Below, one piece after another: positions 26,961 through 30,852 of a stretch of DNA of 64,000 nt. The DNA comes from Eledone cirrhosa (lineage: Eukaryota), in the NCBI GenBank assembly GCA_964016885.1, contig CAXHJY010001317.1, positions 11,368-75,367 of the forward strand. The letters run 5' to 3'. Numbering within the stretch: the first letter of the stretch is position 1; every line of letters begins with the position of its first letter. The translations under genes were made by a program, and so were the position numbers. The notes beneath the pieces were generated by a model. The model was not told the DNA's origin, searched no databases, and was given only the letters and a program-made list of their open reading frames with translations.

Positions 26961-27896
26961 ATGGACTGCATGCAGGAAAAATGTGAAATCAGGAGTCAAC
27001 GAAACTGGTCGAAGATGGAACTAGCGGTTTTGATCAAGGGGTGGACTATGGCTGATGGGTCTCCACCAAGCAAAAAGATGGTGGAGAACCCGAAGAGCCA
27101 TGGGTTTCTGAGGACCCTGGCACAGATAGAGAGAAAGAGAAAAGAAATTGAGAAGGCGTATGTCCTCATAGCGCCTCATATGGCGATGCTAAGCCGTGTC
27201 CTCAGGGAGGAGAAAACCGAAGGGAGGGATGAGGAGAAGGAGAGGGAAAAGGAAAAAGAAAAGGAGGAGAGCACAAGCACGGACCTGAAAGAAAATGATA
27301 TACCCTCCGCTACAGGCAGGGAGGGCAGGCCGGGCAACCAACAAGCTAAGGGCAAAAGTGAAAAGCGAAATCACCTTCCGAAGGAGAACCAAGCGCAGAG
27401 GGACCAGTGGACAACTGTTCAAAGAAAGAACAGAAAGCACCGAGACACTGGGAGCAAAAAACCCCAAGTAATGTGCAAGTTTTTCAAGAACGGGACATGC
27501 TGGCATGGAGAGACAGGGATGGGATGCAGATTCGCCCACCCTAGGTCTCAAACGAACTATGCCCATCATACTCGCGCAACATGCCCCAGCCAAAGCCGAA
27601 ATAAGCCGCTCCAGAAGTATGCTGATGTCGCGCGTGCTGCACCAACAAGGAGAAGGCACGCACATGCCGACGAGATACAGATGGCAGCAGCAGATCAGAA
27701 AAATTTTTTAGTGATGGCAGAGAAGATTGTGGGACAGCTGACCTGGCTGCATCGTCTCCAGAGCCAGGGTCATCCACACCAGCACTCGAGACCACCGCAG
27801 TTAAGGGACCCAGAGTGGCCGCCGCTGACACCAGACCAGGTGTCATACCGACAGCCATTACTGGCACCCCAAAAGTCACACCAGTGCTGCTGCTGA
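26961..27896 (+). CDS. LINE ORF1 with N-terminal Myb/SANT-like motif (RNWSKMELAVLIKGW) and CCCH zinc finger (CKFFKNGTCWHGETGMGCRFAH)
   Basis: ATG at 26961 in gaaATGg context; the upstream part of the listed ORF is CT microsatellite. Confidence 0.8.
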   Translation: MDCMQEKCEIRSQRNWSKMELAVLIKGWTMADGSPPSKKMVENPKSHGFLRTLAQIERKRKEIEKAYVLIAPHMAMLSRVLREEKTEGRDEEKEREKEKEKEESTSTDLKENDIPSATGREGRPGNQQAKGKSEKRNHLPKENQAQRDQWTTVQRKNRKHRDTGSKKPQVMCKFFKNGTCWHGETGMGCRFAHPRSQTNYAHHTRATCPSQSRNKPLQKYADVARAAPTRRRHAHADEIQMAAADQKNFLVMAEKIVGQLTWLHRLQSQGHPHQHSRPPQLRDPEWPPLTPDQVSYRQPLLAPQKSHQCCC

Positions 27897-30852
27897 ATGT
27901 CAGGGGCCTGGTGAAACTCAGCAACATGAGTAAAATTTCCTACCTGGGAGACTTAGCCATAAGCAATCAAGCACTATGCATGGCACTAACCGAAACGCAC
28001 CTGACAAGCAGTATAGCAGATGCAGAAATACATATACCGAAATATACTGTATTTCGTTCGGACAGGAAGGAGAGAACTCATGGTGGGGTTGCTCTGTATA
28101 TCCGTGAAGATGTCACACCAATTGTACTGTTGACACATTCAAACTCAGTCTGTGACACACTGATAATACATATGAAGCAACTACAGACGGTAATATGTGT
28201 CACATATCGGCCGCCCGATGCCCCCAGTCATGAGGGTAAATTTGAGGATAGCCTAAGTAGGATAGAAGAGGTCCTTGACAAACTGGACCAGGGTCTCAAC
28301 ATCCTACTGCTGGGAGACTTCAACCTACCAAAGGTCAAATGGCCTGAGGGCCACCTCCTCCCTGGAATGACGTCAATAGAACAGAGACAGACGGAATCCC
28401 TGCTGGCCCTCACACACAGGCTGTTCATGGAGCAAGCAATACTCCTCCCAACAAGAGGCGAAAATGTCCTGGACCTCTGTTTTACAAACAACGAAGTGCT
28501 CATCCACAATGTAAAGGTGACACCAACAATTCTCTCGGATCATAACTTGGTAGAGCTAATGATATGTGGTCCAAAAGAACCAACAGAGACAAAACCACCA
28601 AGAAGCTCCGGGACGCTATCCTTAACTTCTACGGGGCTGACTGGAAGAAGATTAAGAGTGAAATCCGGAAGCAAACATGGAGTGCAAACATCGCCACACA
28701 AGACACTAACACACAATTTCAACACTTCATGACAACGATACACACCATATGCAAAAAGTGTGTCCCGGAGAAAGAGGCAAACAGACACAAAAATCTTATT
28801 CCCAGAGATAGGAAAATCCTTATGAGACGTAGAACTAAACTCTCAAACCAGTTGAATAGTCAACAAAACCAAAACAAGAAGGAATCCTATTTGAAACGTG
28901 CACTACTTGACACCGAGATTGCACTCAAGCTTTCACATGAGAATGAGAGGGCAAGGAAAGAGAACAGGGCCATAGAAAACATTAAAACAAACCCTAAGGC
29001 CTTCTTTAAATTTGCAAAAGAAACTGCCTCAGTACACTGCAAGATTGGACCACTCTTCCACACGGACGGTTCATTAACCGAAAATCCCCAAGAGATATGT
29101 GAAATACTGAACGAACAGTACAAAAGTGTCTTCACATGTCCACTGAGGCACATGCAAATAACGAAGCCAGAGGAGTTCTTTGATGCCACAACACTACATC
29201 AAGAAATGGCAACCATCAACCACATAGACATAACGGAGGAGGATGTGGTGTACGCCATTGATGAAATTAGAACAGACTCGGCTGCTGGACCTGATGGATT
29301 CCCAGCAGTTCTCCTAAAAATATGTAAGCGGGCCTTAGCAACTCCACTGAAGATGCTCTTCAGAAGCTCCTTGGCTAGCGGTGTACTACCCAGGGAGCTG
29401 AAAGAAGGCACAATATGCCCTATCCATAAAGGAGGTAGTAGAGCGGAGGCCAAGAACTATAGGCCAGTCTCCCTGACGTCGCATATCAGTAAGGTCATGG
29501 AGCGAGTCGTCAGAAAGAAACTAATCACTTTCCTCGAAGAAAATGACCGCCTGACTAGCACGCAACATGGCTTCCGCCCAGGAAGAAGCTGCCTTACACA
29601 GCTGCTACATCACTACGACTGGGTACTGAGACAACTACTAGACAGCTCACATGTAGACGTGATATATCTTGACTTTGCGAAGGCCTTTGACAAGGTCGAC
29701 CACGGAATGATATGTCACAAACTACACGGACTCGGCATAACTGGAAAAGTAGGTGAGTGGCTGCATGGCTTCCTGAGGGACAGAAGCCAGGCAGTCGCAG
29801 CAAATGGGGCCCTCTCGAGGGAAACACCGATAACAAGTGGGGTGCCTCAGGGGACAGTCCTGGGACCACTACTGTTTTTGGTGGCTCTCTCGGACATGCC
29901 CTCTGTGGTGCATGCAACAACATCCCTCACTAGCTATGCTGATGACACTAAGGTAGCACAGGCAATCAAAAACCCGGCTGACGCTGCCCTCTTACAGCAG
30001 GATCTGGATGCCATATACAGATGGGCGGAAGAAAACAACATGCAGTTTAATGCTGGCAAATTCCAAGCCCTACAATACAAACCTGCAAACACAAACACAA
30101 ATATAGCGGAACACAGCTACACAGGACCAGGAGGGACCGATATCCCCGTGTCAAAATCGATACGAGACCTGGGCATAGACATGAGCGATGATGCATCTTT
30201 TTCTTCACACATCATGAAGGTGGCGACAGCATGTAGACGATTCGCTGGCTGGATCTTGAGGACTTTCCTTACAAGAGATCGAGACACCATGTTGACACTG
30301 TGGAGGACTTTTGTCCTAAGCAGCCTGGACTACTACTCCCAGCTGTGTTCACCCCATAGTGTCAAACTAACCACAGAGCTTGAGGCAATCCAGCGAAGCT
30401 ACACCAAGAGGATTGCCAAGATGAGGGAGACAAGCTACTGGGAGAGGCTGAAGGAACTGAACCTCTACTCCTTGGAGCGAAGACGGGAGAGATACGCAGT
30501 GATCTACATGTGGAAAATCCTGGAGGGACTGGCACCAAACTTTGGCATTGGGAGCTGGACCAACCGTCGAACAGGACGTCACTGTGTGGTGCCAAAGGTC
30601 CCGTCTTCCACATCTAGAATAAGGAGCAGGTATTGCAATAGCCTGGGATTCAAGGGCCCTCAACTCTTCAACAGGCTGCCGAGGCATCTGCGAGACTTGC
30701 ATGACGTGGAGGTGGATGTCTTTAAGAAACATCTCGACACCTTGTTATCCAGGATCCCGGATGAGCCCACAGCAAGACACGAGGGAAACCTAAGGGCAGC
30801 AGCAACAAACTCCCTCCTACACCAGTGGCCAACCTATACAGGCTGGAGATAA
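27704..30852 (+). CDS. LINE ORF2: AP endonuclease ([26 protein letters not shown]) and RT ([23 protein letters not shown]); one frameshift at ~28620; start not at AUG
   Basis: ORFs 27815-28732 and 28564-30852; frame open from 27626; start placed at the slippery site by inference. Confidence 0.88.

Follow-up and report, generated by a model that had tools for sequence, protein, structure and literature searches.

A putative -1 frameshift signal conserved at the ORF1-ORF2 junction of LINE families in Eledone cirrhosa

Introduction

Non-LTR (long terminal repeat) elements, unlike retroviruses, are described as using termination-reinitiation (PMC5902531) for their second open reading frame (ORF2), a mechanism shown with an AUG for SART1 and proposed for L1 (PMC5902531, PMC5972666; papers are cited here for particular passages). 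The translation of ORF2 has been worked out in few long interspersed nuclear elements (LINEs), and reviews extend to the others what was learnt from SART1 and L1. Here we analyse the ORF1-ORF2 junction of a LINE family, family A, a near full-length copy of which lies in a stretch of 64,000 nucleotides (nt) from Eledone cirrhosa (assembly GCA_964016885.1, contig CAXHJY010001317.1, positions 11,368 to 75,367 of the forward strand). We call this stretch the window and use its coordinates throughout. The initial annotation of the window had proposed that the element makes an ORF1-ORF2 fusion by -1 ribosomal frameshifting at U_UUU_UUA and had contrasted it with characterised LINEs, in which ORF2 is reached by reinitiation or coupling. 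The contrast agrees with the reviews; it is not absolute, since a figure legend in PMC5911963 states that a -1 frameshift is required for ORF2 of Dictyostelium TRE5-A and TRE3-A.

With HIV-1 gag-pol, the family A element shares the heptamer U_UUU_UUA (PMC7618472), a first ORF that runs past the site, and an RNA-binding ORF ahead of the enzymes. It differs in being a non-LTR element in which Pfam found no protease domain, and in having no stem at 5-9 nt; the HIV shift has been measured, whereas the present one is predicted from sequence. TRE5-A and TRE3-A are likewise APE-type non-LTR elements with a stated -1 frameshift. They are amoebal, target tRNA genes and have an ORF2 that ends in a zinc finger, and the passage concerned names no slippery site or test (PMC5911963), whereas one phased heptamer is kept here across animal lineages. 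SART1 and mammalian L1 also have a bicistronic LINE RNA with an ORF2 dependent on ORF1 translation. Their ORF2 AUG forms part of a UAAUG overlap or follows a 63-nt spacer (PMC5902531, PMC5972666), whereas here the ORFs overlap by up to ~230 nt and no AUG is present. LINEs of the CR1/L2 lineage (Jockey superfamily) resemble the element in their ORF2 with APE and reverse transcriptase (RT), their CR1-like RT motifs and the PHD finger found in many relatives of its ORF1; they differ in that the ORF1 domains listed for them in the relevant part of PMC4120745 (PHD, RRM, CCHC, esterase and L1-type) include no CCCH type. The word "frameshift" occurs nowhere in that paper. The passage considered in PMC5009743 names HeT-A, TART and L1.

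Our literature search, with most subscription journals and Repbase Reports outside its coverage, returned no description of -1 frameshifting in animal CR1-group LINEs, and PMC1965478, PMC4700185, PMC5006619 and PMC11835228 contained nothing relevant to LINE frameshifting. The mechanism proposed here is a known one in a new setting, with a stated precedent in amoeba LINEs.

Results

The junction of family A

The sequence-level checks support the frameshift reading. We consider it quite likely that family A makes an ORF1-ORF2 fusion by -1 frameshifting at U_UUU_UUA, because the heptamer is kept at the overlap of the two genes and ORF2 has no start codon of its own.

The heptamer TTTTTTA stands at 27704-27710 (+ strand), in the ORF1 phase AAT TTT TTA GTG, exactly as the initial annotation had read it, and occurs only once in the 4.7-kb element; it is the predicted site of the -1 shift. 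ORF1 (26961-27896, +), of 311 amino acids (aa) when counted from ATG 26961, a putative start codon and a matter of choice, continues for 61 more codons past the Phe-Leu pair and stops at 27894-27896. The open stretch of the -1 frame runs from 27626 to 28732, across the heptamer and into the APE endonuclease domain of ORF2 (27893-28543, +; PF03372 and PF14529). The segment 27711-27892 (+) is a dual-coding overlap, in which frame 0 encodes the ORF1 tail and the -1 frame, with neither stop nor ATG, encodes a Thr/Ala/Pro-rich linker. The first ATG of the -1 frame, at 27926, lies ten codons past the Asn of the APE motif LLNVRGL, in keeping with the earlier claim that no AUG precedes this motif.

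The same arrangement was found in other genomic copies. Among the 30 top copies of family A, 28 carried the exact heptamer 192 nt ahead of the Asn codon and two carried it with one substitution; none had a Met ahead of the Asn. In 27 of the 28 heptamer-bearing copies, the -1 frame was open through the heptamer. These 30 copies are nearly identical and document the state of the family only. A first look at the genome gave 995 candidates for the family A junction, and all 40 of those scored matched at 100% identity; family A is a young family. A contig of an independent public run spans 27489-27815 with two differences to the window, and four low-share runs gave short near-identical pieces only.

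Families B and C and subfamily D

The heptamer is conserved in phase well beyond family A: in two further diverged families of this genome, in an older subfamily, and in elements of other hosts. Family B, whose RT region is 42% identical to that of family A, had the heptamer at 28 of 30 loci, and at 26 of these it is in phase with no AUG; one locus without the heptamer had a run of five T (T5) at the site. Two decayed copies of this family are in the window, one at 46200-50244 (-) with the heptamer at 49291-49297 (-), and the other at 59174-63300 (+) with a T5 run at the site. Both have many one-base insertions or deletions in homopolymers. Family C, found with a CCCH-finger query, had an in-phase heptamer and no ATG in 30/30 copies. 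No Met stands ahead of APE in families B and C, and the first ORF2 Met in both is beyond the catalytic Glu motif.

In the -1 frame, the last upstream stop lies 26, 6 and 2 codons ahead of the heptamer in families A, B and C, respectively. Past the heptamer there was neither a stop nor an ATG in 64, 60 and 76 codons, compared with stops in 10/247, 27/350 and 26/379 codons upstream of it; the +1 frame of family A had 5 stops in the same 64 codons. When synonymous codons were resampled with the amino acids fixed, the heptamer arose with a probability of 0.009, 0.013 and 0.008 (A, B and C), and the open -1 overlap with a probability of 0.13, 0.25 and 0.38. Taken alone, the open -1 frame is thus weak evidence, and the weight lies with the heptamer. 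Among the 13 Phe-Leu pairs in the ORF2s of the three families, none used the heptamer codons.

Subfamily D consists of older relatives of family A (20 copies, 64-72% identical). Its commonest letter differs from family A at four of the five columns before the heptamer and at all three after it, and at none within it. The T/A boundary is noisy: the last heptamer position is A in 12 copies and T in 8. In seven copies of an intermediate group, the last heptamer letter is G in four and A in three. Judged from these sequences, the conservation of the site at the nucleotide level exceeds what the coding would need.

Relatives of ORF1

ORF1 of family A gave no Pfam family at E<=0.1. A profile of 91 relatives with PHD or CCCH fingers, 40 of which have the PHD finger, matched it in the finger region only (probability 97%, E 7.7e-11), which places its CCCH zinc finger at 27474-27539 (+). 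A search with the ORF1 part of protein P0015 gave 1,997 matches, and among the best 150 of these, 148 had a finger and 127 had a tail of at least 80 aa. In 117 of the 127 tailed relatives, Phe-Leu (114) or Phe-Phe (3) was found past the fingers by a fixed first-occurrence rule. The residue before this pair was K, E, Q, M or W, none of which has a codon ending in U, in 2/117 relatives, compared with 20-34% at five upstream positions; before Phe-Leu elsewhere these residues made up 28/113 in ORF2 proteins and 19/71 in the N-terminal parts of ORF1. Within pairs of similar residues before Phe-Leu, we counted Asp:Glu 24:0 (p 8e-8), Asn:Lys 23:0 (p 0.01) and His:Gln 17:1 against 16:62 (p 5e-9), p values that are overstated as the rows are related. 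A profile of the helix after Phe-Leu ranked the true site 1st in family C and in one element from another host (L287), and 2nd in another (L264).

P0015, of 1316 aa, combines in a single frame a PHD finger, three CCCH fingers, APE and RT, with N-F-L just ahead of the linker. It is a single member, and either a natural fusion or the product of a one-base assembly error. Among relatives of the ORF1 profile that were long enough for a natural fusion, the search gave only two proteins, both unrelated. The long open frames in loci L091-L097, L122 and L128, considered as natural fusions, were mostly truncations into TA repeats and were rejected. In seven proteins (P0067, P0071, P0072, P0078, P0079, P0133 and P0175), x-Phe-Gln/Arg/Glu replaces x-Phe-Leu, possibly as another shift site.

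Elements from other hosts and the RT tree

Prokaryotic genome assemblies contained 386 stretches coding for eukaryote-type LINE RT, most likely through contamination of metagenome-assembled genomes by host DNA. Our scan gave 80 contigs with LINE RT (L262-L341), 45 of which had an APE start and at least 250 nt upstream. The CCCH type of ORF1 was present in three of these outside contigs, L263, L264 and L287. L264 has U_UUU_UUA, with a -1 frame that opens three codons before it, and L287 has U_UUU_UUG, with a -1 frame that opens six codons before it; neither has a Met.

Another group (L268, L269, L340, L280 and L272) has an ORF1 with a terminal motif that we take to be esterase-like. L268 (at 3620-3660), L269 and L340, which are of one family, have U_UUA_AAC followed by a stop, and no Met. 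L280 (at 470-500) has U_UUU_UUA, with Mets also present, and in L272 the site is present one base out of phase. U_UUA_AAC or U_UUU_UUA just ahead of the stop may represent a second frameshift type in LINEs with this ORF1. In the remaining listed outside loci either this kind of site was missing or ORF1 was unclear; the frameshift signal is therefore not universal.

In an RT tree (FastTree, 105 rows, none a named CR1 reference, rooted on two RTE-like ORFs of the window, with weak deeper nodes), a single clade with support of 0.989 united families A, B and C with L262, L263 and 16 database proteins, and the esterase-type elements stood outside it. L264 and L287 fell outside this clade, beside the esterase-type elements. 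This suggests that ORF1 and the slippery site travel together between RT lineages. The label "CR1-like" in the initial annotation stands at the level of the group, whose traits are present (APE and RT in ORF2, a separate ORF1, 5'-truncated copies and short 3' repeats). The closest named endonuclease relative is the octopus protein P0003, 63% identical. Membership in Proto2 was rejected, as the 3' parts labelled Proto2 in the supplement of PMC7846101, compared by eye for the portion used, encode a different ORF2 C-terminus.

Other scans returned little. Scans with an APE alignment gave no match in viral and genome contigs and one metagenome locus without a junction, a scan with the C-terminal motif gave two bacterial chance matches and none in viral contigs, and a scan of the collections with a single ORF1 protein gave no match.

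RNA structure near the heptamer

Both pairings that the initial annotation had suggested downstream of the heptamer can be drawn, and they fared differently. The first is a conserved stem-loop of 15 pairs at 27728-27778 (+), 17 nt past the heptamer, which covaries between subfamilies. Over 35 copies, 91% of its cells were paired, a value reached by none of 500 shuffles that ignore relatedness. Between A and D, two pairs change from G-C or C-G to A-U or U-A, and D gains two pairs; these are few events between two lineages, and the structure itself was derived from a single member of the set. Run on the same alignment of 35 decayed copies, RNAalifold predicted no structure. The hairpin is a predicted fold that, in the window copy, is no stabler than shuffles (z 0.13, -0.97, 0.90 and -0.09). 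Three folded copies of subfamily D had z of -2.8, -3.9 and -1.4, and it was unusually stable in two of them. The second pairing, gatggcag/ctgcatc as a pseudoknot stem, found no support: it shows no covariation, its 78% of paired cells were equalled by 98 of 500 shuffles, five of its seven pairs are within the alignment, and one of the two pairs beyond it is mostly broken in D and E.

No stimulatory stem-loop or pseudoknot 5-9 nt downstream of the heptamer was found in families A, B or C, and the hairpin at 27728-27778 is too distant from the heptamer for a classical stimulator. A luteovirus-type stimulator at the 3' end was also considered. In A, B and C, helices of 7-9 base pairs (bp) link the region after the site to the same 3' motif; 10, 27 and 50 of 300 shuffles matched them, and in D, represented by three copies whose 3' end is clear, the A-type helix is disrupted. 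Marginal against shuffles and disrupted in D, this candidate is not supported.

Layout of the family A copy and its neighbours

The family A copy occupies 26183-30927 (+); copies align from 26183, and it sits in a (TA)n microsatellite with TA repeats at both ends. Beyond the APE domain, the remainder of ORF2 extends over 28546-30852 (+), with the RT domain at ~29422-30075 (PF00078). ORF2 of the window copy is broken by a 4-nt deletion near 28620 and is out of frame beyond it; by a hand count, ~45 of 98 scored copies have a single open ORF2 frame of 1076 codons. The short 3' untranslated region (30853-30927, +) has a GGYGG motif and a hairpin, with 8-nt tandem repeats at the end. Families A, B and C have a common 3' motif (GGYGG, TGGCCT, hairpin, AAAC; 30870-30910 in A, and the 3' ends of L099 and L179), followed by differing short tandem tails. 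The motif is a candidate recognition element for RT.

The host genome is of 3.0 Gb and rich in TA microsatellites. (TA)n or TATACA microsatellites border family A copies (26183 and 30927; L061-L131) and most of their 5' truncation points, a sign of a possible target preference. At 25818-26170 lies a short non-coding repeat with a tRNA-like start and more than one copy nearby, likely a short interspersed nuclear element. LINE copies labelled RTE-like by their motifs are at 4461-6835, 9161-10938, 12993-16362, 17584-20646 and 43442-44002. The ORFs at 1907-2500 and 35720-37168 are presumably GIY-YIG/Penelope-like.

Discussion

At this conserved recoding signal, predicted from sequence comparison, tRNA-Phe and tRNA-Leu would slip back by one base, from UUU UUA to UUU UUU. 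The majority of ribosomes would complete ORF1 (311 aa), and a minority would yield a fusion of ~1,300 aa comprising 250 aa of ORF1, a linker of ~60 aa, APE and RT. Slippage would keep ORF1 in large excess over ORF2 and leave the enzyme joined to the zinc finger of ORF1. The families have no classical stimulator in common, so the shift is probably weak and owed chiefly to the heptamer. The hairpin of family A could assist it, though it is oddly placed.

Several observations weigh against this interpretation. The independent DNA examples, from three families and three outside loci, are few, and a member of the clade, L263, is without the Phe-Leu site and has A_AAA_AAC plus a Met. The Phe-Leu or Phe-Phe motif is missing in 10 of the 127 tailed ORF1 relatives, and the linkers of two close relatives, P0001 and P0003, contain an internal Met. 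The hairpin, with a spacer of 17 nt against the usual 5-9 nt given for such sites in the passage used (PMC7618472), is present only in the A lineage, and families B and C show no stable local fold (z -0.7 to 1.4; the window for B was shifted by one base). In A and B the true site comes only 59th and 49th, respectively, against the profile of the helix that follows Phe-Leu, so the homology of the helix in these families rests on position and DNA. A helix capping box has the pattern D/N/S/T-x-x-E. Such a box would give part of the protein signal and to that extent confounds the protein test; capping accounts least well for the His:Gln reversal.

In families A, D and C the ORF1 stop lies near the APE start (-2, -2 and -11 nt from the Asn codon, respectively), which weighs in the same direction, as it suits termination-reinitiation at a non-AUG codon (GUG, CUG or AUA) beside the stop, giving a free ORF2 protein. 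Reinitiation is the LINE mechanism according to the reviews (as cited from PMC5902531 and PMC5972666), and GUG CUG CUG CUG stands just ahead of the Asn codon in A. Yet a fixed, phased heptamer and an open -1 frame of 60-76 codons upstream would be left unexplained, and the stop shifts to -71 in B and to +16 in L264 and L287 while the heptamer stays. Where the stop falls is set by the first Leu/Ile codons in the frame of ORF2, because CTG AAT and CTA AAT both spell a stop in the ORF1 phase. A start at a later AUG would remove catalytic motifs in B and C. We regard reinitiation as unlikely. The helix capping just mentioned leads to another explanation, that only the protein is conserved, as a capped Phe-Leu helix, with coincidental codons and an ORF2 made otherwise. 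A capping-box-like pattern does surround Phe-Leu in the ORF1 relatives; the codon choice, with a probability of ~0.01 per family in three families, and the persistence of the heptamer codons in A and B, where the helix departs from the profile, make this extremely improbable.

Two further explanations concern the RNA. A real fusion might arise through RNA polymerase slipping on the T run and adding one U in some transcripts, and the run is indeed unstable in the genome, with 4 to 36 T among family A loci and variable T/A runs in D. Such slippage would require no X_XXY_YYZ phase, yet the phase is kept at both the DNA and the protein level; moreover, six T form a short run, and the flanks differ between families, so we hold polymerase slippage to be very unlikely. 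Alternatively, TTTTTTAG, which is found in A, B and C alike, would be a splice acceptor, and splicing would supply ORF2 with an AUG from an upstream exon. The residue after Phe-Leu has a codon starting with G in 94 of 117 ORF1 relatives, as splicing would favour. Subfamily D has TTA AAA instead (A in 14 of 20 copies and G in one), L287 has TTG GGA, and an internal deletion ending at this AG was seen at none of 60 loci (~54 distinct) chosen by the APE protein, where retroposed spliced copies would be expected. The chance that splicing accounts for the junction appears minimal.

A wider statement, which we advance as doubtful, is that LINEs with a CCCH-finger ORF1, throughout a whole animal lineage, use -1 frameshifting to make a fusion of the Gag-Pol kind, that the cassette of ORF1 and site moves between RT lineages, and that what sets the shift is a protein and not a classical pseudoknot, perhaps the ORF1 finger of the element itself bound to the far hairpin. 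A shift set through the ORF1 finger and the hairpin would be a self-regulated frameshift in a transposon.

If frameshifting at the heptamer is correct, many LINEs would make a fused ORF1-endonuclease-RT protein, in one large animal lineage and, as a second type, in elements with an esterase ORF1. This would change the model of how their ribonucleoprotein particles form and would explain the missing start codon in annotated ORF2s. It would also add to animal genomes an abundant set of -1 frameshift sites, which apparently work without a classical stimulator.

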